Assembly: GCF_963676685.1 (NCBI RefSeq)
Contig: NC_092348.1
Span: 46,872,001 to 46,936,000 of the forward strand
DNA length: 64,000 nt
Reading direction: 5' to 3'
Source of the DNA: Mytilus edulis
Taxonomy: Eukaryota
Shown: positions 10,823 through 61,084 of the stretch, in pieces
Layout of the letters: each line of letters begins with the position of its first letter
How positions within the stretch are numbered: the stretch's first letter is position 1
Position numbers and translations under genes: made by a program
Notes under the pieces: model-generated
Database searches by the model: none
What the model saw: only the letters and a program-made list of their open reading frames with translations
What the model was told of the DNA's origin: nothing

Positions 10823-12888
10823 TGTACTGATTTTGAGTCACGGATAAATACATAAATACCCCATATCCTTTAGTTTTTATTTTTTTGTTATCAATAACAG
10901 AAATTACACATAGAAACCAGTTAAAATATTCTAAAATTATTACTATTCTATGTCATGTGCAGCTTTTGAACCGATACCTGCATCTTGAGATTATCGTGTG
11001 TTAAGGATTTCATTTTTTTATAGAACAGTTCTTTGGAAAATGACATGTTTTTGAATGATCTCTCTGTAAAATGAACAGATTGTCACTACACATATATATT
11101 CAGGTGATACATTTAAAAGATACAATAAGTTTTTATGATATGATAAATTGATCTGATATTTGAAATTTAACATTGATTTTTTTATTAAAAATTTACAAAA
11201 GATACTGAATTTGCCCGATGTATCATTCTTTATTTTCCTCTTAATCTCTTCCCTTGTACACTTACGTTTACCAAAACAGTTTAGAAACTAAAACATCAAT
11301 ACATATTGTCGTAATGGTTATTTCTAAAAGATCTCAATGCATAAGAATAGATAAAAATTTTAAAAAATCCCTCTTCTATTTTTATGCTAATGCCATATTA
11401 TTTAAGGTTTATTCAAAAGAAGAAAAAATATTCTGAGGGGGTAATATAAACCAGAATTGATGTTAAAACAGGCAAATCAATTGTAAAAACGTAAAATAAC
11501 AAACAGGTTTTTTTTTTTTTAAATTACAGAGAAACAAACTGGAATTTTGCACAGCATCAACCCTACCGAAACCATGATTGTCAAAAGATTATAATGAGGG
11601 TAAGAGATGTCTAACCTTGAGTACTTTTTGGAGTCTGTCTATATAATTTCGAGGGTTTGATGTTGGTGTTGTCATTCATTTTTTAAGGAGAAATTGAGGA
11701 GGGTATTGTATTGTTACTACTCACTTCGTTTCATGAAATTATCATCAAAGCAAACAGCCGTAAACATGACCATACTAAAGCAATCATGACCTACAAGTTT
11801 AACAACTGTGCAGTTTTCTTTACATTTAACATACAGTGTTTCAGAGTTTTCGTTTATGTTGACTTTTTCTGTACAAATTGGAATTAAGTAGGATTTAGAA
11901 TCCTCCTAGTACAAATACAAATTCCAATAACTACTTGTTGAAATTGTGATATTTATTTTTGCATTGGGAGAATTCTGAATTGAACAAAATAGTAGGATCC
12001 AATTCTACTCAAACATTTACATTTTTTATAAGTTCATGTAAAGCACTAAATAGTCCTCACTATAATGACGACGGGTAATATAAAAACAACACATTTTATA
12101 AATTTATTGCGTACGAATTGCTTTTTTTCCTTCATCAGGAACGCTCAAATCTGAATATTTGAAATCCATGGCTTTATGAGAAAGTAATCTAATTGCTAAT
12201 CGACGTCTTTTCCCTTATTGTAATTAATTTTACTTTTTTTTTTATTAATTATATCAGGAAAGAATAAATTCTGATTGTTCTTTTTTATCTTTATATTATT
12301 ATTTTGACCGTTAACTGTTAAAATAGTTCTCATTTGTAAAACAAACCCAAACGTAGTAGTTAATATGTTGTTGAAATAAATACAGAAAAAAAACAATATG
12401 AAAGTTTTTGTTTTGTTTTGTTTTGTTTATATCTTTTAACCAATCTAAATAAGGTGTTGGTAACCAGATGCAAATTTGTTGCAGTGCTTTTTTTAACACA
12501 AGAGTCTGGGACCGTCTCGAGGATAAGGTACAAAAATGTATGCAGCGTCACATGACAATTGCTGAGGAAAATTTAATTTTTCCTGTGTGTTTTAAGAAAT
12601 ATTTTGTTAACATAATTATTGTTATTTGTATAACCGTTTAAACGTGGTTTAAAGTTTTAGAAAAGCTTCTTTGGAAAATTATATAAATATTGAACATACC
12701 GCAGTGATATCTCTTCACTGACGTTAATGTGGCAAATATTCCTTGTGAATTTAACAAAACTTGTTTTAAATTCATAGGATTACGCCTATGTATACTATGG
12801 ACTCTCGAGTTGAGTGTAACAGTCCCCGATGAGAAAAGCACACCTTACATTGAATAACAGTGTAGTCTATTTTAAGCAAGGAACAGAG

Positions 12889-13337
12889 ATAGAATGAAAT
12901 TCAAAACAGTGTGGCTGTGGCCATTGATTGACACATTAAATTCATCCATTGACTGGGACAATTTACGTGAACGTGTGTCTTTAACAACCACTGTTCAAGA
13001 CGTACCTACGATAGACATTTTAACTGTGGGGTCACCAAAGGTTTCTTGACGCCTTTAATTATAAAACAATTCGAAAAATTAATCAGGAATAACCTTTATG
13101 TTTTGGTTTATACAATTGATATAAATCAAAACATCGTGTCATTCCTGATTAATTTTTCGAATTACTTTATAAAGGTGTTGAGGACCTTTGGTGACCCCAT
13201 AGTTTAAGTGTCTTTAAAAAGATCATAGTGAGCAGTGGTCGTTACATACAAACGTTCACCTAAATTGTCCAAGTCAATGGATGAATTTAATGTGTCAATC
13301 AATGGCCACAGCCAAACTGTTTTGAATTTCATTCTAT
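12889..13337. mobile_element. Fold-back MITE, 449 bp, almost entirely palindromic
   Basis: atagaatgaaattcaaaacag... / ...ctgttttgaatttcattctat; arms about 210 bp; second copy at 52542-52990. Confidence 0.93.
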
Positions 13338-24300: not shown

Positions 24301-27300
24301 GAACAGTTCACGTGAATTTTATATTTTTGGGTAAAAGTCAACACTTAGGATTGTTCTTCATATTTTTACTTTTATGCGACTTCAGTTTCTAACAGTATAA
24401 ACAACATTGAAAGTCTCTTTTAACCGTCTTTATGTATTGAATCTTTCATTTGGTAATATGCTATGAATCATGTCAAAAGTAAAAATGTTTAAAAAAAACG
24501 TAACAAATTATCTTAACATATTTAGTATCTCACCATAATAGACGAGATTTGCCTGTCATATCTATGTAATGCGTCATGACTACGTTAGATAAATAACCAA
24601 ATAGAACATGAAGTCGGTTAAGCCAGAAGATTTTCCGTCAGATATGTCTTCTATAGACCAGTAAACTTTCTTTGGAGAGGCATGTGAGAATGTGACCTGT
24701 TTAACCATTCTGTTAGATCGTAACCCTCTTATTTCTTTTCACTCTTAGTGTCGACTAGAAAATTAATAAATAGAATGTAAAGGAAAAACATATAAGTCAA
24801 GAAGAATGATACACATGGTTAATTGATGATTGATTGTTGATGTTTGACACCCCTTGCAATTCTATTGACTATATCATCCCGGTCATTTTGTGTTGATTGA
24901 GGAAGCCTGAGTGCATTGAGAAAAATTTCAACCTCCTTCCAGAACAATGGCAATCGTAAAAATTTAACGAGGAGATCAAATGCACCTGCTACGTTTGATG
25001 TTCGAACTGAAACCTTAGTGTTGAGTGACAAGTTAACTGTTTATTCTAGAAAGGAAATATTTGTTATACAGGATTTACTTTTATTTATGTTTATGTTAGA
25101 GCCATTTAACCAAGAATCATTCTATTCCTCAGTAATTTTTGTGTTGCACTCCTGACATGGCACAACTTTTTTCCAAACTCATATGTATCAAAACGGTTCA
25201 ATAGAAAAGCTTCATGTGATATAGTTTACAAATTACATAGATCGTGCATCTGCCGATTCCCCTATACACTTGGTAGCAGAGAACTATATTGCAATCACAT
25301 ACCATATCGTATTTAAGAATTTTACTGTAAGCAAATTGAAAGATATTAACTTTCTTACAACAATTAAACCATCTTACACTAAATCTCTGTTGCTGAGTTT
25401 CATTTGAGAGGGTAAGCGCTATAAACCCATGTTTAATCCATCATTTTCTACATTTGAAAATGCCTGTAGCAAGTCAGATATATGACAGTTCTTGTCCATT
25501 CATTTTTATGTGTTTTGTTATTTGATTTTGCCATGTGATTATGGACTTTCCGATTAGATTTTCCTCTAAGTTCAGTATTTTTGTGATATTACTTTTTTTT
25601 ATACAGCAACATGATCGACCTTATGTAGCTATAGGCTCCATTAATTCTACTGATTCAATCATACTATTTTTAAATTTATACAGATGGACCATCTTGTATT
25701 GTACTCTCTCCAAACGAAACGGAATATAAAGTAAAGGAAAACGATTCGTTACAACATAGTATTTCATGCACCGCAACCTGTCAACCCCCTTGTGTGGGAA
25801 CATGGACCATACATACTGGCGAATTTGTATCCTACGATATCTTAAGTTTTCCTGCCATCAAAAGGAACCAAACTGGGTTATATAGATGTAATGTCAGTAA
25901 TAGTGTTAGCAGCATGATATCTACCGATGTTTCGGTTATAGTTACATGTAAGTGTACATAATAAAATTGAGAATGGAAATGGGGAATGTGTCAAAGAGAC
26001 AACAACCCGACCAAATAAAAAACAACAGCAGAGGGTCACCAACAGGTCTTCAATGTAGCGAGAAATTCCCGCACCCGGAGGCGTCCTTCAGCTGGCCCCT
26101 AAACAAATATATACTAGTCCAGTGATAATGAACGCCATACTAATTTCCAAATTGTACACAAGAAACTAAAATTAAAATAATACAAGACTAACAAAGGCTA
26201 GAGGCTCCTGACTTGGGACAGGCGCAAAAATGCGGCGGGGTTAAACATGTTTGTTAGATCTCAACCCTCCCCCTATACCTCTAACCAATGTAGAAAAGTA
26301 AACGCATAACAATACGCACATTAAAATTCAGTTCAAGAGAAGTCCGAGTCTGATGTCAGAAGATGTAACCAAAGAAAATAAACAAAATGACAATAATACA
26401 TAAATAACAACAGACTTCTAGCAGTTAACTGACATGCCAGCTCCAGACTTCAATTAAACTGACTGAAAGATTATGATTTCATCATATGAACATCAGGCAC
26501 AATCCTTCCCGTTAGGGGTTTAGTATCATACCATCATAACATATATGAGAAGAACATAACCCGTGTCATGCCAACAACTGTTTTTAGAATAAATGTGTTT
26601 AGTTCCGATGCAAAGACCTTATCAGTGACTCAATATTAACGCCAAAATATGCAATCTTTAATGACTTGACAACAGTATCGTAATTATATCCCTTCTTAAT
26701 AAGTCTATTCAAAGGTTTTGTAAGTTTCTGAGGTGAATACTGACACCTTTGTGCTTTATAAAGAATATTTCCATAAAAAATTGGATGTGAAATACCTGAA
26801 CGTATTAGAAGTCTGCATGTTGAGCTATATTTACGAATGATGTCTCCGAATAGATTGATGTCAGTGAAAGTAAAATATTAGTACTGATGTTTATTCGATC
26901 CAATTTTACGCTATATAATTTTTCATCAAATATCTAGAACTGATTACACAATTTTATATATTCCATAAATGTTCTTTTCTTCAGTCTTTATAATTTACCA
27001 TGTATCGAATATCCCGTATCGCATAGCTAAACCCGTATCATATTGTTTGATTATGTTCGTGTGGATCAATCTTTAGTGTGTAACGTGTCTGGGGTCCGTA
27101 CCCGAGTTGATTCTCGAGATTTGAGACTTGTGTTTATATTTCTTTTGTTTATAATTCCTCTTTAACTCTCTCGGCTCATTAAAGCTCCTCCAGCTCAATT
27201 ATTATGCAGCCCAACTGGTTTACTGACTCTATATGTCAATTAAATAGCAAGATCTACTTGCACACTACCTTTGTAGCTCTTAGCTCAACAGACTCACTAG

Positions 27301-30300: not shown

Positions 30301-33300
30301 GACAATTGTATTCTTTATTAATGAGCAATTTAAATTCTGTTGGTTGCTTTATAATGATAAAAGTACTATGCAACAAAGAATTAATTGTAACTTTTTATTT
30401 TTTTAAATTTAGTATACGACTACGGATTAGTTTTAATTTTATAAAATTCTTTCCGTTACGTACTGTTCTATTGCAATATGAATGCTTCGTGTATCTGGTT
30501 TGTTTTAAACATTTAAGTTCCTTCTCAAACAAACTTTGATATGTGTATACTGTTTTAGGTTCACCTAGACCAGTCGCTAGACTACAATCAAGAATTGCAG
30601 TCGGCAATGATAGTATTTTGGAAATAAATGTGATATTTTTGTCTTACCCTAAGCCAAAGATATCTTGGACTTTTATTAAAAATGGTTCCAATGAAATAGT
30701 GAGATCAAATAATACAATTGGCATATATCAACATGTATCATCAATTTATATTACTGATATGAAGACATCTCAGTATGGAATGTACGTTCTGAAAGTAACA
30801 AATGGAATTCCAAATGATCTAAAGCACACATTTGAGGTCTTGTCACAACGTAAGTAATAACAGTGGTAGGCATACAGAGCTGATTCGTCTCATCTTGACT
30901 ACGTTTTAAAGCTTTACCTAAATTCACAGTTTAACAGCTTTATGTGTTTTATTTGAAATATAAACAATAATTCTAAAAAGATAAAAAATATATATATATA
31001 TCTATAAACACCAGATGGTAGCCTTACATTTATGCGACAAGCATACAAATAAAGAAGTCTAGCTAGTTAAAAAACAGGTTTGTTCCATGCACCATTTATA
31101 CACAAGGAAAGGCCATTTCCAAGTCAGGAATATAACAGTTGTTTTCTATTTTGTCTGGTGTGTTTGATTTTTTTATTTAATCATTTGAACTTTCCGTTTT
31201 TAATTTTCCTTGAATTTGGATAAAATGGACACGCATTCCAAAAACAAAACTAAAATTGGTTGAACAAAATAAAGGTTACATAATGTTATATTAATTCGTA
31301 CTGGTAGGATATTTCTTTGGATATTGGCCCAATATATTTTGCTTACATCTTGCTGTTAACTTTTATAAAATATAGTGTATACACATGGTGTCAAAAGCAG
31401 ATGTCTTAGTGTGAAAAATACCTTATTCATGAAATTGAAAAATAAACTGTTTTGTATATCAGATGGATCCAATGTTATGATTATAAATAAACTCATCATA
31501 GAGACCATGCAGTCGTTTTTTCCCCCTTTTCATGCAAACAGAGAACCGTATCACAACCGGTAAATACATAGATCACAATATGTGCGTGTGATCCTCATCG
31601 CTAGTGCATTTAAATTGATAGCTATTTATCCAAAGCTTTACACACAATCCATAGTTCGTCTAACCTATATAACGGAATAGCGAAACAGTAATGACAGCAT
31701 CATCAGTAACGACTGTTCGAATAATGACTTGTTTAAGTTCGTGTTTCACCGTATCAGACACATGCACCATGATTCTAGTGTCAGCTGTTTAATGTGAATA
31801 TGGTGCTTAACTTGAAATACATCACGTGGTGGTTAAGATAGAATATCATGAACATGTGTTGCTACAACTACCATATGCATCAAAGACTTCATCCACTCTT
31901 GTAACAGTTTAATATTTTTTTTATAATACTTGTTATGAATCACCTTAAAACTTTAACAACAGTGGATGTAGTCTCGGATGCGTACATAGACAATACCGGT
32001 AGTCTGAAGGCTGCTACAAGAAACAAGAGCTACATTTAGGGGAAAGGGAATACATAGACGAATCCTGGGAACTGTAACAACAGTGAATATAGTCTAGGAT
32101 GCGTACATAAACAATACCGGTAGTCTAAAGGCTGCTACTATAAACAAGGGCTACATTTAGGGGAAAGGGAATACATAGACGAATCCTGGGAACTGTAACA
32201 ACAGTGAATATAGTCTAGGATGCGTACATAAACAATACCGGTAGTCTAAAGGCTGCTACTATAAACAAGGGCTACATTTAGGGCAAAGGGAATACATAGA
32301 CGAATCTAGGAACTGCAACAACAGTGGATGTAGTCTAGGATGCGTTCATAGACAATACCCACAGGCACTCGTCTCAGAAACAAAATTTTCCTATATACCT
32401 TTATATAACACAGATATTTAGGAATAATTTTTTTTCTGAGACGAATGCCTGTGACAATACCGGTAGTTTGAATGCTGCTACAAATAACAAGAGCTACATT
32501 TAGGGGAAAGGGAATACATAGACGAATACTGGGTCATAACAAATTTCTTAAAATTTGAAAAATTTTATGAGAGATGACGACATTAAGAAAGAACTTTTTA
32601 GTTTTTATTCACAGGAGCTTGTCCAATTGATTTCGAGGAAAAGTTAGTTGTAGCAACAAATGCTCAGGTTGTTCTGTGTTATCTACCAGATAATGGCATT
32701 TCAAGTAAAACCTCGTGTTAAAAAGAAGATGCTTACACTAGAATCAAGATACATGTGTCTGGTGCAGTGATACACAGACTTAACTGGGTCATGACTCGAA
32801 CAGTCGATACTGATGTTGCTGTCATTGCTATTTTGTAATTCCGTGACATAGGGACAGTAGAAATTTGGCTTGCATTTGGAAGTGGGAAAAGCTTTAGATA
32901 TATATCTATCCATGACCTTTCAAAGGCACGTTTATTTGAAAGGGAACTTCGTTGTTGACATGGATGGCGTTTGAAGATGTGACTTTATGATTTAGAATGG
33001 TGATTGATCATCTAACATCACCAAATATGGATTTGATAATGTCATTGACAAAACGATACGTGGTTTTGTAGTCAGATCGAACAAACTTATCAGATGGGGT
33101 TTACGAAGCAAGAAAACATGTTTTTCAAAGAGGAAAGACTTATTGATGCTATTTGAACGAATCGGTCTATTTTTTCAGCATGTAAAACATGCAATGTACC
33201 ATTGCGGGTGTGGATGAGTATAACAAGCTTGGAATTGCTTCATATCCTTACTAGTCCAGAAGCTAATAAATGGCGAAGGAAAAATATAATCCATTGAATT

Positions 33301-36300: not shown

Positions 36301-39300
36301 TACAACATCACCAAAAATAAACAGCTGCGCAATGAGCGCATGATACGCCCGACGTCTTGTGTGGAAGTTTTATGCAATAATCATAAATAGTTTCTGAGAA
36401 AGTTTTAAGCAATAACCATTTATTGTTTTTGAGACACGGCTGGACATGTGAAACCTCCCGACCCTGTTTTTTTTTTTACAAATATCACTAAAATAAAATT
36501 TTGAATCGAACCAAAAAGTATACAGATCTTTAGATTAATATAACAAAGAAGTGTGTACAGTTTCAAGCAATAATCATGAATCGTTTTTGAGGTACGGCAC
36601 GACATGTAAAAAAAACCTCCCCCTTTTTTACAAAATACTCAATTACTCGAAAAATGAAATTTTGAGTCATCACCAAAAAGTATACAGATCTTCAGATTAA
36701 TATAACAAAGAAGTTTGTAAAGTTTTAAGCAATAATCATGAATCGTTTTTGAGGTACGGCGCGACATGTAAAAAAAACCCTCCCCCTTTTTTACAAAATA
36801 CTCAATAACTCAAAAATGAAATTTTGAATCATCACCAAAAAGTATACAGATCTTTAGATTAATATAACAAAGAAGTTTGTAAAGTTTTAAGCAATAATCA
36901 TAAATCGCTTTTGAGATACGGCGCGACATGTAAAAAACCCCTTCCCCTTTTTTACAAAATACTCAATAACTCAAAAATGAAATTTCGAATCATCACCAAA
37001 AAGTATACAGATATTAAGATTAATATAATTAAGAAGTGAGTAAAATTTTAAGCAATTATCAAGAATAGTTTTTTAGATACGGTGCGACATGTGAAAAAAA
37101 AACACACCACTGTTTTAGTTACAAAGTGCCGTAACTCAAAAAGTTTATTTCTTATTTTCACCAAAAAGTATACAGATCATTTGACCATCATAAAAAACAA
37201 CTACATTAAGTTTCATGAAATTTAGATAAGTCGTTCTCAAGTTACGGTGCGACATGTTTACGCCGGACAGACAGACGAACAGACGGACAGACAGAAGGAC
37301 AGACGGACGGACGGACAGACTGACGGACACCGGACATTTGTATACCATAATACGTCCCGGCAAAATCTAGACGTATAAAAATAACAATAAAATGAACAAA
37401 TGTAACGCAGATATTTCAGAAAACAGATATCCGTCTTCAGTATGACCCCGATGTAAAATGAATCATGCCAATCTATCCTAATTATAACACTATCACAATC
37501 TTGAATTTATACACCAAAAAAAACCAGTTTTAGCGAACACTGGTACAATTTTTAAATTTCCAAACACGACACAAAGACTGCACAGATATGCAAAAATAAA
37601 AACAGTTCTTTGCGATATGAATTGGCACAACTCTAAAATTCCAAAGGTGAAGACAGTTAGGATATTACAACAACTGCGTGGGAAAACAGTCCAAATAAAC
37701 AGCTCTGACTGATCTTAGTTGGTGTAATATTGACCTTTTTTGCTCTGATGTTTAATAATCGAAGAATGCAAAAGACACCCATACTACCATAAGTTGTTTA
37801 ATTTTTCCTCTAAAGAACTGTAAAAGATGTAAAATCCGTTTTTTGATTCAGGCAGTACACGTATAGATCAAAGATACTCAGAGGAAATTGAAGATATTGC
37901 AGTTATGGAAAGTGGTGATTTGAATATTAGAGTATTTATCCTAGCTTACCCTGAACCTATAATCATTTGGACTATGAGACGTTCTGACACAGGACAATAT
38001 TATACAGTAAACTATACTAATTCATTTAACAGGGTCGAACATATTTCAACTGTGAATATAACCGAAGTTTCAACAAAAGACTATGGCGTTTATACAATTA
38101 TTGCATTTAACAAAATAGGGCCTCCATATGTTAAATCCTTCACAGTGAAGCCACTAGGTAAGTACGTGAAATAGGTATTTAATCCTCTACCACCTAATGA
38201 AAATATATAACCTATTCTCATATGCACAACACAATCTATCTTAGGTTATAAACAATCCTTTTTTATGTCATAAGACTGCTAATCTTGCCTGTTATTGTTT
38301 CCTGTTATTAACTGGCTGTGGATGTTTTGATTCGAGCAAAATTGATGGCGTTTATTCAGGAAGAAAAATCTGTAAATGACTTGGTATATTATAAAAAGTA
38401 TGTTATATTTTTTTCCAATTAACTTGGCAACTCTGAAATATAGAACAAAAGCACAGTTACGTGTTGCTCCTTGGTATTGAATACAAGATCGATATATATG
38501 GTCAAATTTTTTTTCTGTTACTTATTGAACAATTCTCTATTACTTTATATTTTAGCAATGAAAATCTTTGGACACCAAACCGCATTTTATATATGTTTTA
38601 TCAGGACGTATTAACCCAAAAGTACATATTGGCCGATGACAAAATCCGATTGTCAATATTATATGACAGGTTAATATATAACGTAGTGACTGATTGAAAG
38701 TTCAAGTAAAAGTTTAAATAATGTGTTAGGAAAATGACGTCCAATGTTCTTTCTGCGTATTTTCAAATTGTATTTTGCAAGAATTATAACATGTTATTGA
38801 CAATATCAATATTCTTAAGAACGTCATAGGTTGTTGAATTAGCTTTCTTGTATTTCGAAGCACCTGAGATCACCCTCAGATTTTGGTGGGGTTCGTGTTG
38901 CTTAATCTTTAGTTTTCTATGTTGTTTCTTGTTTACTATTATTTGTCTGTTTGTCTTTTTAATTTCTAGCCATGGCTTTGTCAGTTTATTTTCGATTTAC
39001 GAGTTTGACTATTCCTCTGGTAACTTTCGCCTCTCTTGTTTTCTTAGCATCTACATTTAACATAAAATTCCTGAGATATCCAGTGAAAAACTTTCAAATT
39101 TTCTTTTTGTCTGCAGCGGCGCTTCCAGCACCGTGGTTGTTGTGTGTGACGTCATAGGGTCATAATTCTAAACTTAGCAGGATTATTTCATATTGACCAC
39201 CAATAAATATATAAATGGAAACATAGCGTTCAAATACGTAAGAATAGAAACAAGGTTCCGGATACGTAAAATAACCTTTGAAATGCGTGATCGTAATGTC

Positions 39301-43860: not shown

Positions 43861-46155
43861 TTCGTTTCACAGGTAATGGCGGATATGTTCCACATTTCGT
43901 AACTTCAATTCCGTCCCTCTTCACGGGATGTGACCTACGGAATTTTACTTATTTTCGGGTTTGTACTTACACGAGCAGCACGAAGAGCCACATGAAAAGC
44001 ACCTGAGGTTTCTTCCAGTTTTGGTAGGGTTTGTGTTGTTCAGTGTTTAGTTTTCTCTGACGTGTTTTGTGTACTGTTTTTTTTTTTTTCATTTAAGCCT
44101 TGACGTTGTCTTTTAATTTTTGAATTGTGAATTTGAATGTCTATTTGGTATCTTTTACCTCTCTTTTATCAACCACTGGGTCAATGTCGCTGATGGTGGA
44201 TTCTTTGTACCCGCGGAAATCATCCTTTGAAGTGGTTCATATTCATGAATTAGGGCAGATCAAAGAGAATACTGGCTCGGCCATAATTCAGAATAAATAA
44301 GAACAGAAGCAGACGTGAATATTGGGTTGTCTGATATTATATGTGTCCCCTCATCACCAAACATGACAAATATACCTACATGTTTTTTGGCACATTCAGA
44401 TCATCATACTTACAACAACAAAAATCTACGTTCACAGTTGTGTTCATCTCTACTAAAAGACATTTTGAATTTTAATGACAATGAACAACATGGTTTCATT
44501 TTGAAATGTAAAACAAATATTCCAAACCTATAAAAGTTTAATTGCAGATAATCAATTTACTAGTTATTTAACTAAAAAGTCTTATTTTATTAGAAGCTAC
44601 GATGATCATGATGATCGAAATCAACAAATTTGTGTACGGACTAGTAACAGTGTTTCGGGATTGCTATATGTCAGCGAAACGAAAATAGGACTGTATACAC
44701 GTATGTGCGCCCATAGATCAGAAATTAGAAACAATGCAAGCGTCGACATTGATTAAAAGAATCTTAACCAGCCTGATCATTCAATCCTTTCTATGCAATT
44801 TTGCATAATCGACAAAATATACCCCAGAACTTTAAATCCTTATCTTGCAAAACCTCTATGTAGACAAAAGGAAAAACCTCTATCCAAACCAATACCAACT
44901 TACCGCTATTATCTCTGATATTGCAAGTCGCACTCGAAAAGAAAAAATATTCTTTACAAAACATTAATGTAAGGCCATGATGCGATCAACTTGAGCAATA
45001 TCCTCCGTAATAAACACGTTCATTGGAAATTACCTGCCTATTTTAAGATCTTAGGGTACCAATCATTTCGTATACATATATTAAACCAATTTTAATCAAA
45101 ATATTTTCAATTACAAACACGTGTTGCAAAATATCTAAATATTGCCATTAACTCATATCAGCAAAATATTTAATCCAAAGCCGTCAATTGGAAATACAAC
45201 TTCAAAAGACTTATGAATTCACTCGAGGATTATACCAGGCAATAGGTTAAACGAGAGAAAGAAAACGTACATAATCTGTCCAAATGGAAGAAGGTATAGT
45301 TGATACAAATCAAAACTACAAGCTGAAGTGGTCTATAAATACACATGCTACATCAATTTTTGAAGATAGTGATGCTACAACACAACTGTCCTACCTCAAA
45401 TACAGATGTGTTGTTGTTAGTCCCAAACAAAATCGCATTACATAAACTGCTTGAATGTTGAATAAGGTAATTACATTTACTTTGAAAACTTTGCATATAC
45501 ACAAACTACACAACAATGAAATCCTATGTAACGTAACCATAAGTTTGTTCTATATTCATTTGGAATTTCAACTAAAGATACGGACGTGAATCTGTATTTG
45601 ATACCCATAATACATATTAAGCGTCAGTACAAACAACGTTATATTCCTGGGTCTTCAACGTGCTCCTAGAAAGCTTTTTTGAGATGGTACCATCAATTTT
45701 ATCAGCATTTAAAGACGTGGTACTACATATTCTAGAGGTGTTGAGAATCAGAAGTGGATACTAAAACAATCCAAAGATCTTTTAGAGTACATACGATCTA
45801 AAAGAGAAACGCAAGATACCAGAGAGACATTCAAACTCATAAGTCAAAATCTAACTGACAACGCCATAGCAAAAAATAACCCAGACAAGCCATAGTCCAT
45901 TAACACAACAGGGAAAACTACAGACTGAGCAACACACCCTAACCAAAATCTTATCTCTGTCTCTTTCGTCTTGAAAAAAGTATTAACATATTTGACTTTT
46001 CTACACTTTACACAAGTATTCTTTATTCTAAATTTTAAGAAATAATGAAAAAATGGTTCTTTGTTTCATAAAATAATATGACCAACGTAGATTCAAATAT
46101 CACGTCTTAGGAAGGGATACATCGTACTTTCTAAAAACATTCTCTCTTCTCTAAA

Positions 46156-46525
46156 TTCTAACATCGGACTAGGACTTATCTTGAACTGAATTTTACTGTG
46201 CGTAGTGTTATGCGTTTACTTTTCTACATTGGCTAGAGGTATAGGGGGAAGGTTGAGATCTCAAAAAACAAGCTAACCTCGCCGCATTTTTGCGCCTGTC
46301 CCAAGTCAGGAGCCTCTGTTTTTTGTGTATAATTTGAAGTTTAGTATGACGTCCATTATCACTGAACTGATACATATATTTGTTTAGGGGCCAGCTGAAG
46401 GATGCCTCCTGGTGCGGGAGTTCCTCGCCGAATTGAAGACGTATTGGTGACCTTCTGCTGTTGTCTGTTCTATGATCGGCTTATCTTTTCTTTGACACAT
46501 TCCCCATTTCCATTCTTAATTTTAT
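46156..46525 (+). mobile_element. Family B 3' fragment with mutated twister (46231-46317), nested in the decayed Penelope RT
   Basis: Reverse complement of about 25961-26360; GAGGG changed to GAAGG; 12 nt palindrome ttgagatctcaa. Confidence 0.85.
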
Positions 46526-46746: not shown

Positions 46747-48252
46747 TGTTCCAGACCATATGAGTATTTGGACCGTACGCGTATGGTCCTGTACGAGCTG
46801 ACAATACATGTTATTTGATCGTCAATTTAAAGAAACATTCATTACAATCTTTTTTAGTTTTACAAATTGTTATTATTACAATTAAATGAATAAAATGAAC
46901 AAACGAACAATTATCTTAGATGCTCATAAAAAATAACCAGATTGTTATTGGCAGGAAATGGCCACAGCATTTATTAACAGATATGATATATGTACTATTA
47001 TATGAAATGCAATTTGTGATATGATATATGTACTATTATATGAAATACAATTTGTGATATGACATATGTACTATTATATGAAATGCAATTTGTGATATGA
47101 TATATGTACTATTAAACGAAATGCAATTTGTGATACATGTAGATCTATGAATTAAAACTAACTGATAAAAATGCATATGTGTCTGTGAAAATGTTATATG
47201 ATGATCGCCGAATATGTTTGAGGTGGCAGACCATATATGAAAAGGGAAAGTTCAAGATAAGCTATTAACCCTGGAATTCAGAGGCTAATGCTATCATACG
47301 ATTACAATAAGTCTGTAAACTGCAAATATGTTATCTAAGCGCAGCGAAATCTGCCAAATTGTCGGTGCTGCGACAATTTTAGCCTACAGTTAAAAATTTT
47401 CACAGAACCGTCAACCGCCAATAAAATTCACCTTAGAGATAGTTAATCCATCGGTAAAAACAAACCTACCATTAAATTTTCACTCCCCACCTTTTCAAAG
47501 CCAAATTAGCTCCTCCCGGTCGTTGTCTTGCTTCCAAAATTTTAGAAGATAAATCTATGGCTAAAAATGCTTCTGCTTTTCCTAAATGTCGACGTCAAAA
47601 AGAGGATTATGGGTAAATCAATCACTTGCAAAGATCGATGATCCAACTAGAAACCAAATACTATTACTTGATGAAGTAGTATAACGACGGACAGTGGTAT
47701 GAGCACAACCGATAACTGATTTAAAATTAAGATTTTAAATCCTATTAAAACTAAAAATTTGTTTTATTGTATATCTGAATCCTATTTTGGTACTCTCGCT
47801 CAAGGTGACACTTGCTATCACAAGTTACGCAATATTTTTTTGAATTTACATGTTTGCAGTTCATGCACGTTCATTTGCATTTTTTTGTAAAGTTGCTAAT
47901 ATTCTATAATATTCTGAAACAATTGTCCTCCCACATTATGTTTACTTCCGATATCTTCAATTTCAGTGATCATGTTTTCAATAAATGTATTTTTGATCGA
48001 CATGCTAAATACAAGAGATTAACAGATTTGATTAGCGTGAATTTTTTAAATAGCTAAAATTTAAAGTTTTTACTTTAATAATTACAATCGAACTTTTTAT
48101 ATATTTATTTGAGAGTTAAGTTATGTTTAATTATTTTATGCCTTTGTATCTAATAAACTTGACAACCTTCTAAATATTATTCATAACGTACGCGTACGGT
48201 CCGACCGTATGAGTATTTTGAAAAAATCCAAATATTCATACGGACTTGAACA
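46747..48252. mobile_element. Non-autonomous TIR DNA transposon, 1.5 kb, TA flanks
   Basis: 26 bp TIRs tgttccagaccatatgagtatttgga / tccaaatattcatacggacttgaaca (4 mismatches); RT sequence resumes after it. Confidence 0.82.
46980..47134. repeat. 38 bp minisatellite x4
   Basis: Unit gatatgatatatgtactattatatgaaatgcaatttgt. Confidence 0.95.
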
Positions 48253-51069: not shown

Positions 51070-51565
51070 TATAAAAAAGAAGATGTGGTATGATTGCCAA
51101 TGAGATAACTGTCCACAAGAGACCAAAAATGACACAGACATTTACAACTATAGGTCACCGTACAGCCTTCAACAATGAGCAAAGCCCATACCGCATAGTC
51201 AGCTATAAAAGGTACCGATATGACAAGGTAAAACAATTCAAACGAGAAAAGTAACGGCCTTATTTAAATAAAAATATGAACGAAAACTAAATATGTAACA
51301 CAAAAACAAACGACAACCACTGATTTACAGGCTCCTGACTTGGGACAGACACATACATAAATAATGTGGCGGGGTTAAACATGTTTGCGGGATCCCAACC
51401 TTCCCCCTAACCTGGGACAATGGTATAACAGTACAACATAAGAACGAACTATAAAAATCAGTTGAAAAAGGCTTAACTCATCAGATGGACAAACATACAA
51501 ATGGAATTGGTAGGGTTCTTGTACATCCCGACAACAAAAAGACACTAGGAACAGATCTGAGAATG
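51070..51565 (-). mobile_element. Interspersed repeat family A with near-intact twister at 51317-51423
   Basis: Inverted near-copy of about 53970-54460; minus strand GGGG-GAAGG-ttgggatcccgcaaacatgtt-TAA-CCCC-GCC...G-TCTG-TCCCAAGT-CAGG. Confidence 0.85.
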
Positions 51566-52541
51566 AATTAGTTTATGAAGCGAAAATCTCAAATTCATCC
51601 AATGTAGTGAAGCATGACTATATACACATGCATCTAATCTTCTTTGTCTTCTGTAAAGATGGTGCATATACAAAGGAATAGATACTTTGCAATTGTGGTT
51701 TATTAAGATGTTAACATTATCACAATTGTATAGCATTTCTAATGTCTTTCGTCTCTTGTATATTTTGGTTGTTGTACTTTTAAAATAAGTTCCAATGATA
51801 AAGATTTTAAAACCACCATTACTTTTCAAAGGCACTTTCTTACATATTGTTATTGATAGAATTGTGCATTGAATGACTTTCAAAGCTTTTAACCTGTCAA
51901 TTTAAAGGAATGTACAGTCATGCTATTGAAATCAAGTATTTAGTGAAACACTAAAAAAATATGACATTTTAAGGAATTTTTACTTAAGTAAAAATATCAC
52001 ACAAACAATGTTGACAACCGTGAGACAAGACATAAAAAGTCTTTGCATGGATATTGATCATATGTTATAAAAATATTTTGAAGTGGTTTTGTATTATGAC
52101 ACTTGAGTATGTAGAATATAACAATTTAAAGATACTTCTGAATGGTCTCCAGATACTATAAAATTATGTCTAGCAAATATTCTTATTTATAGCAACCATG
52201 ACATTTCACTTGACTTTTGAAAATAAATGATAATAACACTTGAGGTGCATGTGAAACACATATAAGAGATATCCCGTTAAGTAATAAAAGTCTTGTTATA
52301 AAATTGCAAAATCATGAAACCAAATATAGTTTTAAATCTTATTTTCAATTCATTTCTTGTTTAAATCTAAAATCCGCTGAAATAACCTTCTATTTTATGT
52401 CACTATTTCAAATTTTCAGTTCCTGTTATAATGTTTTTGATACAGTTAAACATTAAAACTGTCATTTTTAAATTCATTGAAGGCACAAGGATAAAGTCAA
52501 TATAAAACTTGGCATACATTTGTGCCATGTAAAATATCTTT

Positions 52542-52990
52542 ATAGAATGAAATTCAAAACAGTGTGGCTGTGGCCATTGATTGACACATTAAATTCATCC
52601 ATTGACAGGGACAATTTACGTGAACGTTTGTCTGTAACGACCACTGTTCACGACGTACCTACGATAGACATTTAAACTGTGGGGTCACCAAAGGTTTCTT
52701 AACGCCTTTAATTATAAAATAATTCGAAAAATTAATCAGGAATAACCTTTATGTTTTGATTTATATAATTAGTATAAATCAAAACATCGTGTTATTTCTG
52801 ATTAATTTTTCGAATTACTTTATTAAGGTGTTGTGAACCTTTGGTGACCCCATAGTTTAAGTGTCTTTAAAAAGTACATAGTGAGCAGTTGTCGTTACAT
52901 ACAAACGTTCACCTAAATTTTCCCAGCCAATGGATGAATTTAATGTGTCAATCAATAGCCACAGCCACACTGTTTTGAATTTCATTCTAT
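52542..52990. mobile_element. Fold-back MITE, second copy
   Basis: Same length, ends and orientation as 12889-13337, with different flanks. Confidence 0.93.
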
Positions 52991-53169
52991 CTGATTATGT
53001 ACTATCACGATATTGCACGAACATAGCAAAAGGGTCATTATCTTATCAATCAATTTCTGACTATATATCAGAAATGACAGACTAAAAATCGTCAGTGAAT
53101 ATATATATATGATGATAATTTTGTCATCGCTAGCAACATATAGACAGTCCTTGGATGATGTAAACTTCT

Positions 53170-53410
53170 CACAAACACCATACACCATTACACCATTCAC
53201 CATACACCATGACACTATGCACCCTGTGCCGTTACACAATAAACGTTACATCTTTGCTTCATACACCTTCCACATAACACTGATTTTTTACAGAGATATT
53301 GCTGTCATACACATTATACCATTATCCCCTTTCACCATACACCATAGCACCATAGCACCATACATCTTCTACCTTTGCACCATATGCCATACATTATTAC
53401 ACCATACAGG
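53170..53410. repeat. Degenerate (CACCATA)n low-complexity repeat
   Basis: Repeated caccata/caccatt; accounts for ORFs 52982-53239 and 53109-53537. Confidence 0.75.
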
Positions 53411-53812
53411 TTTTTGTTTAAAGATTTATCCCATACAAGAGCTATTTATAAAGGAATATGCCATTAAGGCATTACGTTGGTCTTGGTTATACTATATTCA
53501 AAACCCTATTATTTTGATTTCAAACAGGCTAATATAGTTTAACCTTGTTTGGTCTGCTGTTCGTTCTTATGATTTTGATAGCTTTAAAGGTTTAATATTT
53601 CTTTTTATGTTTTTATTATCTATTATCTTACGGATTTTCGTTGCATTTTGATGCATTTGTGAGGCATATTATTTCTTAAAAAACTTTGATTAGACATTTC
53701 TGCCAAAAAAGATATATCAGAAGCAAGACATGCAAGATGTATATTCTAACAAAATATAACTATGGCCTTCTATCTAACTGATATTGCTTTAATCAATAAT
53801 TATCAAAAAAAA

Positions 53813-54460
53813 TGCACAAGGTCATGTTTTTCTCTGACTGTTTATGACGTCTTTACACTGAACCCATTGGATGTTGGATGTGAACGCATTGATAATTTAG
53901 TCTTAGATGCATGATTTTTTTATTAGCTGTTAGTGGCTTTGAACTAGCTGTCAGATAACTGCGAGTAGTCTCAGATCTGTTCCTAGTGTCTTGTTGTTGT
54001 CGGGATGTACAAGTCACCGTCTACGTCCACTTGTATATTTGTCCATCTGATGAGTTCAGCCTTTTTCAACTGATCTTTATAGTTCGTTCTTATGTTGTAC
54101 TGTTATACCACTGTCCCAGGTTAGGGGAGGCTTGGGATCCCGCTAACATGTTTAAACCCGCCACATTATGTATGTATGTGCCTGTCCCAAGTCAGGAGCC
54201 TGTAATTCAGTGGTTGTCGTTTGTTTATGTGTTACATATTTGTTTTTCGTTCATTTTGTTATATAAATAAGGCCGTTAGTTTTCTCGTTTGAATTGCTTT
54301 ACATTGTCATATCGGGGCCTTTTATAACTGACCATGCGGTATGGGCTTTGCGCATTGTTGAAGACCGTAAAGTGACCTATAGTTGTTAATTTCTGTGTCA
54401 TTTTGGTCTCTTGTGGACAGTTGTCTCATTGACAATCATACCACATCTTCTTTTTTATAT
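53813..54460 (+). mobile_element. Interspersed repeat family A with mutated twister at 54108-54213
   Basis: ccactgtcccagg...gggatccc...aacatgtttaa...cctgtcccaagtcagg...cagtgg. Older copies at about 16828-17463 (-), 18590-18830 (+), 28230-28450 (-), 49265-49710 (+) and 55870-56100 (+). Confidence 0.85.
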
Positions 54461-54904
54461 ATAGTGTTCCTTTATTTGTCTTTATTAATAATACTTTTAC
54501 TGTTAAGACTGTTTTGGTGATATACATTTGACGTGGCTCTGTTTTGGTGCGTCCCGGTTTTGTGTTGTTTGTCTTATCTTTCATTTTTGCATGTGTGCTT
54601 TGCTTTGTCCGTGTGACTTTTTGTGATTCTTTGATATATATGACGTGACTCTGTACTTATCTTATCTTATATCTCTGCCTAGACGACGTTTACATTCTGA
54701 CGTCAAACGCACGATTCTACGTGAGAGTTAATTTTAATCTAGACATTCAGTCCGGGTATTTAAAAATTTTCAATGCTTTATGGGTGGATTTCACATACAA
54801 AAAATTTAAAAAAAATAAGAAAGCAATGAATGAGGTTGTTGAATTTAATATACTCTTTTTTATTCTTCTTTGTTAAACTTTTGTTTGTTTTTATAATGAT
54901 AAAG

Positions 54905-55195
54905 ATTAAAACACAAGGTTGACTGTAGTATCCCTTTATTTTACCTTTATATGTATTATTTCTGTTTGTTTTGTTTACGCATCGTTGTCAATATAATGTA
55001 ATTTAATGCGACTTTCATACAAGTGATAGGTTTAAGCTAACTATAAAATCACCCTTTTCTACATTAGAAAATGCCTGTACCAAGTCAGGAATATGACAAT
55101 AGTTATCAATTCGTTTGATTTTGCAATTTGATTAGGGACCTTCCGTTTTGAATTTTCCTCGGAGTTCAGTTTTTAGGTGATTTTACTTTTTTTTT
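54905..55195 (+). mobile_element. Interspersed repeat family C with degenerate twister-like core (also about 25385-25545 and 31020-31215)
   Basis: tcata...AGGT...ACC-cttttct acatt agaaaatG-CCTG-TACCAAGT-CAGG-aatatga; three mutually similar copies in the window. Confidence 0.65.
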
Positions 55196-56142: not shown

Positions 56143-56713
56143 TAGATATCAAAGATACCAGGCTTATGATTTGATACACCAGACGCGCGTTTGTCTATAT
56201 AAAACTCATCAGTGACGTTCATATCAAAACATTGAGAAAGCCAAACAAGTATAAAGTTGAAAAGCATTGAGGACCTTAAATCCCAAAAAGTTTAGCCAAA
56301 TAAGGCTTAGGCAATTTATGCCTTGAATAAGAAAATCCTTAGTATTTCGAATAATTCATGCTTTTGCAAACAGTTAATTTAAGTTAAAAAATTACCATAT
56401 AATGGTTATTCATGTTAACACAGAAGTCCTGACTACTGTGCTGGTTATACCCTCAGGCAATAAACGTTCACCAGCAGTGGCATCGACCAAGCGGTGTAAA
56501 TAGTTAACAAATGTACCAGGCTTATTATTTGATACGTCAGACACGCGTTTCGTCCACTTACGACTCATCAGTGACGCGTTTAGATAATAAAAGTTAGAAA
56601 GCCAATCAAGTATAAAGTTGAAAAGCATTAAGGACACACAATTTCAAAAAGTTGTGCACATTGCGCCAAATACGGCTAAGGTAATATATGCCTGGGATAA
56701 AAAAAATTCTTAG
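56143..56713 (-). mobile_element. Older retrozyme-like tandem, period about 358 bp
   Basis: Collinear with 23464-24057. The hammerhead near 56182 has lost the G of GAAA; the one near 56540 is intact. Confidence 0.85.
56534..56577 (-). ncRNA. Minimal type I hammerhead ribozyme
   Basis: gcgtca-CTGATGA-gtc gtaagtg gac-GAAA-cgcgtg-TC-tgacgt; 6 bp stem I. Confidence 0.85.
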
Positions 56714-59538
56714 CACGGTCTTCAAGAATGAGAAATCCAAATACCGTATACTAATAGTCAGGTATAAAATTCACCGATTTGGAAATAATAAAAAAAGCTA
56801 CAAACATTGAACAACTGCCGGCTGACTTGGGAAAGGCCCGTAATGTATTCGGCGGAGTACAGTTTTCATTTGGAAATTTTTTTAAATCTTATTCTAGAAG
56901 TTCTAATAATTTTTAATTTGAATTGAGTTTCAAAGTTCAACACGGATTAAACAAATTGCAATGTTATCACAAACACGGTCAAAGTAAAACATTATCACGA
57001 TAACAGTAAGTGTTGTTGAATTTGTTAATTTATTTGAATTTGGAAGGTTCTGAACTAAGTTTGACCATAAAGTGTGTTTGATATCGGTACGGAAACATAT
57101 CTGCTATTAAAGGGGAGCAATTTGCGCCCATGGAAATACCAATTACATAAGACGACAAATTTTATTCTACTAACGTTCATAAATGTTGTCAGAATATGTA
57201 AGTCTTTACTCATGTCATCACACCTCCGGTACTAGTATATCAATCATATGAACCTCAGTCTTTTATTGATAAAAAAGGCTTTATTAATGTTGCAGCAACT
57301 AAAAAAGCGATCACATTTATCAAACGAACATCTTATTATATAAGAAAATGTTTACCACTCCAAACTGGTTAATTCTACTTTTTTTCAAATGTTGTATTAG
57401 AAAAATCATCCTGGGAGAAACAATAGCATATGTATTTTTTACTGGTTGAGGAATAGTTGTGTATAATTCTAATGTAAGAATGATTTTATCATCTTCCTCC
57501 TCAAATCTTCAAACTAAAGTGTTCCTAAGAGAGAAGTCATTTGATTTTCTTGGGTGGAGTGGGGCAGGGATCAATACCCCAAGTTAATCTTTTTTATTTA
57601 CCCAGAGCAGTAAGTTAGTTTATTATCATGACCAATCACAAACACAATATTTTTTTCGGCATATGGAAAATTTCCTTTACACTTTGTGTTGTTTTTCTTA
57701 ACTGTTATTATAATTCTAGTGTATATGGAATTACCTTATTTGTTACTTGTACATGTATTTGATAAGCCACATTGGTATATATCTTGCTTCTCGCCTGACT
57801 ATTTAAAGGACTATGAGAGCTTTGATCGTCATTTTTCGTCTTTTATAGAACAGGTTGACAAGATATGTAAATGATTAAAGCAATGACAAAAAGAGTTCAG
57901 GCACATGCAATGCACAAAAACATCCCTATCTCACCACATGTTCTCTAACAGTCGGCTCTGAATGGCGAAAACACAATAAAAGCAATCAAATCCAGGGACC
58001 CAGACACAGGTCGAAATGATAAATTAAAAACCAAAATTCACAACTAGACGCATCAATTACCATGCAACATTTAGCTCTCTGTAATAATTTCATATTCTTC
58101 ATTACAAAAATCAATATTTTGAGCTATTCACAACAATTTATTTCTTCGAATGTTTTCAAACTTACTATGGTTAATAATTTGTTAGTCATTATTTTGTAAG
58201 TATTAGTTGATAAATTTTGAAACTGACCGATTTTATATTGTGTGTGCTTTTATAGAAGTGCTGATGTCTGTGTTTTTCTTCTTTTTTTTTGTATTAAAGA
58301 TTTTCCTGATTGTTAACTGTTAAAATATGTGGTTATTTCAATTTTAAACTTAATATGAACATGTTGATATTATATTTTTTTTAATTTGCAGATATGAACA
58401 ATTTAAATGCTATTGCCATATAGTTAAATCATGAGTAAAATTTGTTTATTAAGATCGTCTATTATAAAACTAATACATAGGTCCATTAAACAATAAAAGT
58501 TATATTTAAGCAAACACCTAACATTATATAATATCTCGTTGCGATTTTCCGCACATTTATTTTGTCATAAAGCATTTATTATCATATGGTTATAATGATT
58601 CTCGTTCTCGTGTACTTGGACATCGAAAGCTTTCATATTTTTGAAGTAATTTATGCATTGGATAACAAAAAAACCTTAGTATTTCGAATAAATCGCATAA
58701 AGTAAAGTTATAAAAATGACCAAATAATTGAAGCTTTATCTCTAAAAGTGCTTAGAATATATAAAAGGTCAAACTTTATATAGTAGTCATTTGTGTGTAT
58801 CATTTGAGAGTTTATGTAGTGAGTATAATATGCGAGTTTATGTAATTTGTATTATCTGTAACTGTAATTACAAACCTGCTCGTGCATTTTTCATTGTTAT
58901 TCAACGCAAATTTATTTTCTAAGATACCTCGGACGATCTTATTTCACAAAGCATTTCTATTATCTACTTATTGTACCTCGAACTTATTTACCCGATGTAG
59001 CTCTTTAAGTTGAAGTTCAATTCAATAAAAGTTAATCAGGCATGACTAATTAGATACGCCCTCTTAAAATCAGGGGGCCCGAAATAGGATTGGGAAAAAC
59101 ACCCAGCAAAATACCTTAATTTACCATTTCAAGAATTTGTTTGATACAAATTTTTGCTTAAATATCTTCGATCAATAATCAGGCGGTATTTTGTGGAAAT
59201 AAATAACCTGTCCCGAACCGGGAGATGTTGACTGCAATAGGAATTAATTTATAAAAAAGTCCATATCTCATTTACTTATAGTGGCCGTTATTGTTTGTAA
59301 ATTCATGACGTTTTGTATATGACATTCGTCTATCGTGGAGAAAAAAGGAAGAGGGCTTTATAACTTACGAGTTCGATCATTATTGTTCAAATCTATTCTA
59401 TTACGGCATACGTTTTACCTCTAGCGAACGCTCTGTCTTATTGTAAAAAGTGCCACTCTAAATTTGTGAACATTTGCTTCAAATTGATCCACTTTGAATC
59501 TAGTCGTGAATACGCATGACATATTTGCCACTGGACAC

Positions 59539-59856
59539 AAAAGAGGGACGAAAGATACCAAAGGGACAGTCAAACTCATAAATCTAAAACAAACTGACAA
59601 CGCCATGGCTAAAAATAAAAAAGACAAACAGAAAAACAATAGTACACACGACACAACATAGAAAACTAAAGAATAAACAACACGAACCCTACCAAAAACT
59701 AGGGGTGATCTCAGGTGCTCCGGAAGGGTAAGCAGATCCTGCTCCACATGTGGCACCCGTCGTGTTGCTTAAGTGATTACAAATCCGGTAAATAGTCTAA
59801 TTCGGTAGGTCATATTCATTAAAGGGAAGGGGATTGTAGTTACCACGTAAGGAACA
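59539..59856 (-). mobile_element. Well-preserved 3' UTR fragment of the same Penelope-like family
   Basis: Reverse complement aligns to 21070-21389; this explains the recurrent spurious ORF ...LAMALSV...LVSFVPLL. Confidence 0.88.
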
Positions 59857-61084
59857 AAGGAGCAATAAATTAATCAGCTTCATTTAGTGATTTTTATATA
59901 TTTTATTTTTATTTACATTTGAATTTTTAGGCGTAAATCTTGCATTCCTTCCATCATTTCTCTCTTTGCATTTAATCTTTTTTTTTAATATTAAAAAAAC
60001 GTTGTCGTAGTACACATCAGGGGTTACATTGTATAATTTCCAGCAAAACTAACAGGGAAGGGACTACATCAGAAAAACAATCTTCATTGAGTGGCAATAA
60101 CTCATATATTGAAGCATACAATGACGGCTCCCTCGTCTAGGTGACAACATTTGCTGTTTGAAGTTTATTTATATCTCAGACTGGTATAATAGTTGTCATA
60201 AAAGGGGAAAAAATGATAAAAAAGGTTGACAACAATTTATAAAAAAGATTCAACTTATTTTGAGCGTTTTATTTTTTTTTTAATATTGTCTTGCTAATCG
60301 GTTTTGTTTTATTTTTTTTCATCTACTATTGTTCTAGCAAAAGTCACAAAAATGTTGTTAAAATCAGCCATGCGACTTATAATTAGTTAAAAAGATTAAG
60401 CTGACTTTACTTGTTGTTTACACATTTCAATCATTCAACTCGTGTGTAGATCATCTTTTCCTCTAATGTTTTTTTTTAAGGTTAAGATAGCTTGGAATTC
60501 TCACTGCACCAGGCATCTGATATACATTCCTATTATATTTTGATCGGACAAAGCTGCGTATTTATATAACCAATAAGCCAAACGAACGCATCCATTTAGC
60601 AAGGGTGAGGTCTAGAGATGTAAATAATTCTATACCCAAGCAAATATTGGTTTTGAATAAAAGGAGATAAAGGTATACATTAATGCGACAGCAACCCAAA
60701 GACACAGATAAATAAAAATATTTAGAGTCTTTTTTTTTTATAGAACATTCCGTGTACAGAATAATAAGCTCAAAACCGACTCATGACTAAATAATAGTTA
60801 TACGGAGTTAATTCAATATTTTCCGTCAAATATTGTATATCCGAAAAGGCACATTTGATTTACTATAATTATTTACCGTGAAAGATAATAATCCCAACAC
60901 TTCACTGTATAATAAAACGGTAAAATAAATAATGATAATGGATGACGACCAGCGGCGAATAAAATTAATATTCAGGACGATTACGTAAAATATAATAAGA
61001 GCATTAACCCCGTTTTTTACTAGACTGACAAGCTGAGTCTTTTTTTTATCGTGTAAGTTCACAAGATATTAGTTCGAATGAAGA

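Follow-up and report, generated by a model that had tools for sequence, protein, structure and literature searches.

We analysed a 64,000-nucleotide stretch of the genome of the mussel Mytilus edulis (NC_092348.1, positions 46,872,001 to 46,936,000 of the forward strand; hereafter the window), which contains many copies of a structured motif shared by repeat families A, B, C, D, and E. The motif almost certainly has a real P5-permuted twister-type fold that retains helices P2 to P5, the two pseudoknots, and both catalytic residues (G and A), and that lacks helix P1. The five families are the 3' untranslated regions (UTRs) or pseudo-long terminal repeats (pseudo-LTRs, pLTRs) of Naiad-type Penelope-like retroelements, and the motif is likely a self-cleaving ribozyme placed in the hammerhead slot of these elements. 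Judged from its sequence, it very probably cleaves in some form; the chances that cleavage would depend on a dimer appear evenly balanced. The labels P1 to P5, general base, and general acid follow PMC11662667, in which our T1 is PK2 and our T2 is PK1.

The families share a 16-nt core, CCTGT(C/A)CCAAGTCAGG, with 37,548 exact occurrences in the genome (1.37 Gb) and none for the reversed control. When up to two mismatches were allowed, eight matches were found in the window, compared with 0.01 expected from shuffles. A covariance model made from 17 copies, one source being the copy at 26196, detected 10 window copies at E<1e-4. These included the seven copies of families A, B, and C that an earlier note on this DNA had named, all present at their positions, together with three further ones. 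A structure descriptor that requires P2, P3, P4, both pseudoknots, GA, and AA, and demands no P1, was passed by 51 of 182 distinct copies; on both strands of the whole window its single match was the 26196 copy, the one the note had called intact. The whole catalytic core was exact in 7,338 genome matches for A and B and in 2,468 for C and D, which gives at least 9,806 core-intact copies and bears out the very large copy number that had been suspected. Family E lies outside that count, with 3,298 exact core matches. The general-base G, the general-acid A with the next A, and the L4 adenines were kept in the 7,338 A/B matches, the 2,468 C/D matches, and E, and catalytic residues were lost in several window remnants. 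The window copies are the following.

26196..26286, minus strand: family B twister-like motif, the sole intact window copy, found by the descriptor, by Rfam Twister-P5 (23.1 bits, model positions 1-58 of 58), and by the covariance model
46231..46317, plus strand: family B remnant with a G-to-A change in T1 and damage to P2 and the second palindrome
51317..51423, minus strand: family A motif with one T1 pair broken (AGG vs. CCC), inside a truncated A copy at 51070-51562
54108..54213, plus strand: family A motif with catalytic G and AA kept, P2 shortened, and the third T1 pair broken, inside a truncated A copy at 53813-54459
55010..55098, plus strand: family C (Naiad_Mgal-type) remnant with the general-base G changed to T at 55027 and the second palindrome and cleavage site deleted, inside a copy at about 54763-55195
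25386..25500, plus strand: family C2 remnant (first palindrome of the short type) with mutations in L4 and P4
31029..31150, plus strand: family C remnant, heavily decayed, covariance model 29.1 bits
49465..49580, plus strand: additional family A remnant, covariance model 67.7 bits
55978..56094, plus strand: additional family A remnant, covariance model 56.0 bits
17045..17162, minus strand: additional A-like remnant, decayed, covariance model 26.5 bits (E 5.5e-5)

A two-mismatch core match at 56821-56836 (minus strand) lies in another context and was missed by the covariance model; it is perhaps another decayed family.

Read 5' to 3' on the element strand, the motif runs from the 5' arm of P5 through the 3' arm of P2, G A, the three nucleotides of T1, a linker of 20-24 nt, and U or C to A A, followed by the 5' arm of P2, the two nucleotides of T2, the hairpin P3, P4 with the loop U-NCY-AA-GU, and the 3' arm of P5. 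The type-P5 arrangement was found in the helices, with P2 and P4 present and the chain opened in P5, and in two L4 pseudoknots, one of 2 bp and the other of A-A plus 3 bp; the third T1 pair is U-U in Naiad_Mphi, Scon, and Mmer. The parts of the 26196 copy, all on the minus strand, are placed as follows.

26286-26278 with 26204-26196, minus strand: P5
26273-26270 with 26240-26237, minus strand: P2
26269, minus strand: general-base G
26267-26265 with 26217-26215, minus strand: T1
26264-26244, minus strand: double-palindrome linker, with a private mutation at 26255 in the first palindrome, where most RNA reads carry another base
between 26243 (U) and 26242 (A), minus strand: predicted cut
26236-26235 with 26212-26211, minus strand: T2
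26234-26223, minus strand: P3
26222-26219 with 26210-26207, minus strand: P4

Rfam Twister-P5 was the best match, over the full 58-position model, for a family B copy (23.1 bits, E 0.0035, 141-nt stretch) and a family E copy (21.8 bits, E 0.0079, 151-nt stretch). The match shows only on short stretches and was absent at E<=1 when stretches of 461-501 nt were scanned.

The evidence that carries the fold is that its pairings change in step. In a set of 17 copies drawn from seven subfamilies, double-sided changes were seen in 10 of the 18 named pairs, and 95% of the cells are paired, compared with 29-46% when the partners are slid. The copies had been preselected by the pair-demanding descriptor, and the cells represent copies, not events. 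T1 occurs in three forms, GGG/CCC, GGT/ACC, and AGG/CCT. When loci were chosen by the L4 side alone, CCT was accompanied by AGG in 23 of 30 (seven not parsed, no other form), ACC by GGT in 9 of 22 (one other, 12 not parsed), and CCC by GGG in 14 of 37 (three other, 20 not parsed). Families D and E, found by tracing decayed copies, have GCGG/CCC and T1 GGT/ACC (D) and P2 GGGA/TCCC or GGGT/ACCC, T1 AGG/CCT, and P3 TGCA/TGCA (E). Five published bivalve Naiad consensuses, Mgal, Bpla, Mphi, Scon, and Mmer, also end in the motif by eye (PMC8557442 supplement), the tail of Naiad_Mgal being family C. They add P4 CCCG/CGGG and ACCG/CGGT, P2 GTGC/GCAC and GAGT/GCTC, T2 CC/GG, and new P3 and P5 arms; the clam consensuses have P2 GTGC/GCAC or GAGT/GCTC, T2 CC/GG, and P4 ACCG/CGGT. 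GA, AA, and the L4 adenines are unchanged across all five. Because the helices vary while these residues stay, it is the fold and not the letters that is conserved. The sharing of the motif would most simply be explained by inheritance from a common ancestor among the Naiads, with the fold kept by purifying selection.

RNAalifold recovered P3, P4, and P5, and P2 was not recovered. MAFFT misplaces P2 of C and D relative to A, B, and E, and therefore only the outer P2 pair was counted. An alternative P2 register for C and D that uses the AC of T2 was rejected, as it breaks in D, Bpla, and Mphi. Rare forms of P4 (CCCG/CGGG, nine matches) and T2 (AAGC, 503 matches) were considered as new families and proved to be mostly mutated copies of the main ones. 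A short-word search of the Naiad supplement (PMC8557442), in which line breaks and variants can hide matches, found the motif in no other consensus; Naiad_Mcor stops before the motif site, and Naiad_Pmar bears another motif.

The earlier note had proposed a twister-type fold under selection, and the pairings changing in step, together with the kept catalytic G and A, sustain that proposal. The P3, P5, T1, and T2 pairings it quoted hold at the family level. Its GGG/CCC for T1 of family A is right for the family pairing and wrong for the window copies, which have AGG (51317) and GGC (54108), and its T2 contrast of GC/GT with AC/GT is a one-sided change from G-U to A-U and not a compensatory one. 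The 16-mer that it gave as the shared part is indeed shared, but GA-NNN-TT, AA, and P2 are common to the families as well. Its statement that the families differ outside the motif held for the flanks of A, B, and C, which have no blastn similarity, but not for the reverse transcriptases (RTs), which are homologous, with identities of 41-66%.

The assignment to Naiads comes from the open reading frames (ORFs) and the form of the copies. The marks of a Naiad are an N-terminal GIY-YIG domain with a Zn-finger-like motif, a CxC linker, DKA, and a C-terminal RT (PMC8557442). The 1,002-aa ORF at the genomic locus L056 (family B) has, by eye, the N-terminal Zn-finger-like motif and GIY-YIG, CxC, DKA, and the C-terminal RT, and this type of ORF gave no Pfam match below E 0.05 and no NCBIfam match; the full domain set was seen in family B, and in A, C, D, and E the RT part alone was reached. 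In family B the core lies 377-378 nt downstream of the stop codon in 10 of 10 loci, which were picked for long open frames among 150 matches. An RT adjoins the motif in 14 of 25 loci of A (66% identity), 3 of 30 of E, clearly 1 of 25 of C, and 1 of 12 of D, so the extension of A and C upstream into Penelope-type RT ORFs, which the earlier note had wanted checked, was found. RT identities range from 41% (C vs. A, B, and E) to 80% (A-E), and the UTR flanks outside the motif have no blastn similarity between families except A-E downstream. Since the RTs are homologous, the families are relatives and not unrelated repeats. Compared with their relatives, the copies have common 3' ends and ragged 5' ends, and in a partial tandem at locus L058 a 967-bp pseudo-LTR matches the 3' end at 99.5% identity, each of the two carrying an intact motif. 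Both 5' truncation with a fixed 3' end and partial tandems forming pseudo-LTRs are thus present, as in Naiads. The corresponding window features are given below.

25960..26844, minus strand: 5'-truncated family B Naiad copy with its fixed 3' end at about 25960
26599..26844, minus strand: end of the family B RT ORF, the last 81 codons plus stop, with an identical C-terminus in the 1,002-aa ORF of L056
26483..26547, minus strand: SECIS (selenocysteine insertion sequence)-like hairpin between the stop codon and the twister, RF00031 32.3 bits (gathering 35)
53836..53902, plus strand: SECIS-like hairpin belonging to the family A copy, with a mutation in its AAA loop; the homologous stretch of locus L077 scores 25.5 bits with RF00031

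Loci L056 (1745-4753) and L058 carry four in-frame TGA codons at Cys-like sites, and the SECIS-like hairpin of family B scores 32.3 bits against a cut-off of 35. Family B is a candidate selenoprotein Naiad in mussel, represented by these two loci, and family A has a SECIS-like hairpin as well. When the tails of families B and A were scanned with Rfam, SECIS was the one entry at E<=1, and no canonical hammerhead was found. Naiads are reported to lack canonical hammerheads (PMC8557442), and the word twister has no occurrence in the text and supplement of that paper. Two further loci were observed: at L051 (1599-4976) an RT-RNase H-like ORF from a different retroelement runs in frame into a truncated family B copy downstream of it, and at L175 (1228-1806) a 207-bp unit bearing a family C motif is repeated 2.8 times head to tail, with 99% likeness among the repeats, in a twister tandem that resembles a retrozyme.

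Beyond what had been described earlier, P1 is missing and two palindromes stand in its stead in the linker of every family. These are TGAGATCTCA plus AAACATGTTT in B, GGGATCCC plus (A)AACATGTT(T) in A, TAGCTAGCTA or TAGCGCTA plus AACC-A-GGTT in C, TGGCATGCCA plus AACC-A-GGTT in D, and TGGATCCA plus AAACGTTT in E1; in clams, TGGAGCGCTCCA or GGTGCGCACC occurs with AAACC(A)GGTTT. The palindromes exceed letter shuffles in five of seven representative copies (P 0.0003-0.015). Among the first 100 of 2,069 E1 matches, the centre of the first palindrome is AT in 49, TA in 46, and another pair in 5; among the first 100 of the 1,509 D matches, the corresponding numbers are 84, 15, and 1. The E1 and D centres are two separate double changes that preserve symmetry, with almost no intermediates. 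Palindrome lengths are 8+8 in E1, 10+10 in B and Mmer, and 12+11 in Scon, and such roughly matched lengths fit two side-by-side helices. When monomers were folded, the T1 strand and its UU paired with the AA/P2 strand or with the second palindrome. A cofolding preference for dimers of 8-17 kcal/mol had no control and was not counted.

Cleavage would occur at (U/C)|AA by twister chemistry. We infer this site because natural twisters tolerate imperfections in P1 and P2, a G-U in the 2-bp pseudoknot, and C, or any base, at position -1; they do not tolerate loss of the catalytic A or G (PMC11662667). The palindromes of two copies would pair, forming two side-by-side helices that bridge two cores, and this pairing between copies may pull the monomer from its predicted inactive hairpin and free the core; efficient cutting would then take place mainly in tandem transcripts. 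In a pLTR-ORF-pLTR transcript, two cuts would free a unit-length RNA with a 5'-OH and a 2',3'-cyclic phosphate, which could be circularised or used in template jumps. Genomic 3' ends lie 135-420 nt past the predicted cut, so the cut does not directly set the 3' end, and circularisation or template jumps would explain why the ends lie beyond it. We tentatively propose, at somewhat less than an even chance, a natural dimeric twister, made of two P1-less cores and two self-complementary helices, that would be switched on only when copies meet in a tandem transcript, would number about ten thousand intact copies in a mussel genome, and would be swappable with another structured module in the Naiad slot.

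Several results weigh against a self-cleaving ribozyme of this kind. No P1 in cis was found in any family, the strands giving U-U, U-U, and G-G in A to E, and P2, which has 4 bp in A, B, and E, has 3 bp and a bulge in C and D. The Rfam gathering cut-off of 37.6 bits was reached by neither the B copy (23.1) nor the E copy (21.8), and Rfam scans of the whole window gave no twister at the gathering level or at E<=5; with P1 missing and the cut-off not reached, the motif is filed as twister-like and not as a member. The preselection of the 17 copies reduces the force of the covariation, and the independent changes of T1 number two. By nearest-neighbour folding, in which pseudoknots are not scored, the twister-compatible fold lies 3.0-11.1 kcal/mol above the monomer optimum, and the probability of P2 is 0-0.21 in A to D monomers. 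In the D and E2 copies used, where one of the two palindromes is damaged, there was no significant difference from shuffles (P 0.38 and 0.14). No pile-up of molecule starts or ends was seen in three RNA-seq runs (9,557-12,232 reads each on B, both strands), a weak test given fragmented libraries and mostly read-through transcripts, and 0 of 100 unselected copies had a 5' truncation within 3 nt of the predicted cut, unlike Perere-3. Finally, another Naiad-like family, H, thrives in the same window without the twister motif. A fall in one-strand read depth across the predicted cut (0.64-0.70 vs. 0.86-0.91, neighbouring 34-nt bins) was not counted on either side, because the strand ratio swings equally elsewhere and strandedness is unconfirmed.

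59537-59860, minus strand: family H (Naiad-like) tail, with similar pieces at 21137-21391, 38853-39037, 44019-44168, and 45800-45876

An RT end lies just upstream of the family H tail in 19 of 25 loci. The tail has another conserved structured motif, with the palindrome CCACATGTGG and the word CTGAGA, and H-like motifs occur in the published Naiad_Pmar tail and in the family preceding Naiad_Pmar. In an unrooted RT tree of 10 rows, with the second C copy left out, C, D, and H were separated from A, B, and E with 100/100 support. The grouping of the H RT with those of C and D indicates at least one loss, replacement, or transfer of the module, events that an unrooted tree does not distinguish.

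An active monomeric twister is possible rather than probable. The palindromes would then be tiny hairpins or neutral spacers, and their symmetry would come from template-switch DNA repair and not from selection on RNA pairing. A switch from AT to TA at a palindrome centre is possible through hairpin-templated repair, which counts for the monomer, as do the prediction that P2 forms in E1 and E2 monomers and the finding that P1 is dispensable in tested twisters (PMC11662667, PMC8501958). As hairpins, however, the palindromes would form only 2-3 pairs around a 4-nt loop, and two of them recur with RTs only 41% identical and again in clams, in other sequences and at roughly matched lengths. We consider it unlikely that the motif is a twister-derived, non-catalytic structure that serves the Naiad RT or endonuclease as a signal for recognition or dimerisation. 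The missing P1, the predicted misfolding of the monomer, and the lack of a cutting footprint in reads or truncation points would suit such a signal, but at the family level neither the general-base G nor the AA at the cut nor the L4 adenines vary in five families and five consensuses while the helices do, and a binding signal is not expected to retain exactly the catalytic set. That an ordinary shared repeat or short interspersed nuclear element (SINE) domain, the latter named in the earlier note as a refutation, resembles a twister by chance is very improbable: the Rfam scores do lie under the cut-off, but the block sits in the 3' UTR of RT-encoding elements, its flanks are unrelated, and the covariation of all the helices and of the two pseudoknots largely refutes it.

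On the evidence of sequence, the structurally conserved and very abundant twister-like fold of Naiad tails would extend a known class of ribozymes by a new form and a new host element. A literature search, made on listings and on passages of the papers named here, among them 10.64898/2026.07.22.740005 and PMC10085705, returned no paper that connects Naiads or mussels with twisters or reports a twister bridged by palindromes; bivalves are among the new twister hosts of the survey PMC11662667, whose supplement may list some of the sequences. From the lack of canonical hammerheads in Naiads, Craig et al. (2021) concluded that Penelope-like elements do not need the ribozyme, which may be a mere parasite (PMC8557442). 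The presence of a twister-type fold in the hammerhead slot, in five or more families of mussel and five bivalve consensuses from the literature, suggests instead that some self-cleaving RNA, whatever its class, is needed there, and the role of ribozymes in Penelope-like elements becomes testable. The motif would add a P1-less twister architecture, possibly the first to work as a dimer. Its copies with an intact core number at least 9,806 in one genome, compared with 813 variants in Schistosoma mansoni (PMC8501958), and many lie within transcribed sequence and could cut host RNAs.

Other features were observed in the window. Type I hammerhead matches of 20-32 bits, below the cut-off, lie at 23497-23540, 23850-23895, 56176-56218, and 56534-56577 (all minus strand) in 355-361-bp tandem repeats that fit mussel retrozymes (PMC7229834); together with the likeness of family C to Naiad_Mgal, they suggest a Mytilus mussel as the source. 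In family A, the word CTGATGAG, half of a hammerhead core, stands at 54046-54055 (plus strand), about 60 nt upstream of the twister, with no GAAA after it. An element of about 450 bp resembling a miniature inverted-repeat transposable element, with 155-bp terminal inverted repeats, has two copies (12889-13337 and 52542-52990), and the tandem arrays at 36399-37257, 31944-32533, and 46942-47169 have unit lengths of about 162, 121, and 38 bp, respectively.

Compared with the type-P5 twister of Rfam (RF02684, clan CL00120), the Naiad motif has the same block order, P2, the GAGGG and UAA strands, GC before P3, P4 with the loop U-CCC-AA-G-Y, the two pseudoknots, and G and A as catalytic residues. 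It differs in having no P1 and a two-palindrome linker of 20-24 nt there instead, in having both a long P3 and a closed P5, in the bulged 3-bp P2 of C and D, and in scoring 22-23 bits against a cut-off of 37.6. The host elements resemble published Naiads (PMC8557442) in domain set, 5' truncation, and partial tandems, and family C matches both the tail and the RT end of Naiad_Mgal. Family B, with its four TGA codons and SECIS-like hairpin, resembles the selenoprotein Naiads, which have been published from clams and spiders (PMC8557442), whereas ours is from mussel. The S. mansoni Perere-3 twister (PMC8501958) likewise has a defective P1, is attached to a retrotransposon, and has many genomic copies. 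It is, however, of type P1 and located at the 5' end, where a target-site duplication beside the cut forms P1, whereas the Naiad motif is of type P5 and located in the 3' UTR or pLTR of a Penelope-like element without truncation at the cut; that paper mentions neither a palindrome nor a dimer. Canonical Penelope-like elements carry pLTR hammerheads with the same tandem-transcript logic and with dimer cutting via a palindromic stem (PMC6765202). These type I hammerheads with palindromic loops share with the Naiad motif the position in the element and a terminal helix reduced to a palindrome; they belong to another ribozyme class and have one palindrome where the Naiad motif has two, and the dimer cutting that was shown for them is what we propose for the Naiad motif.

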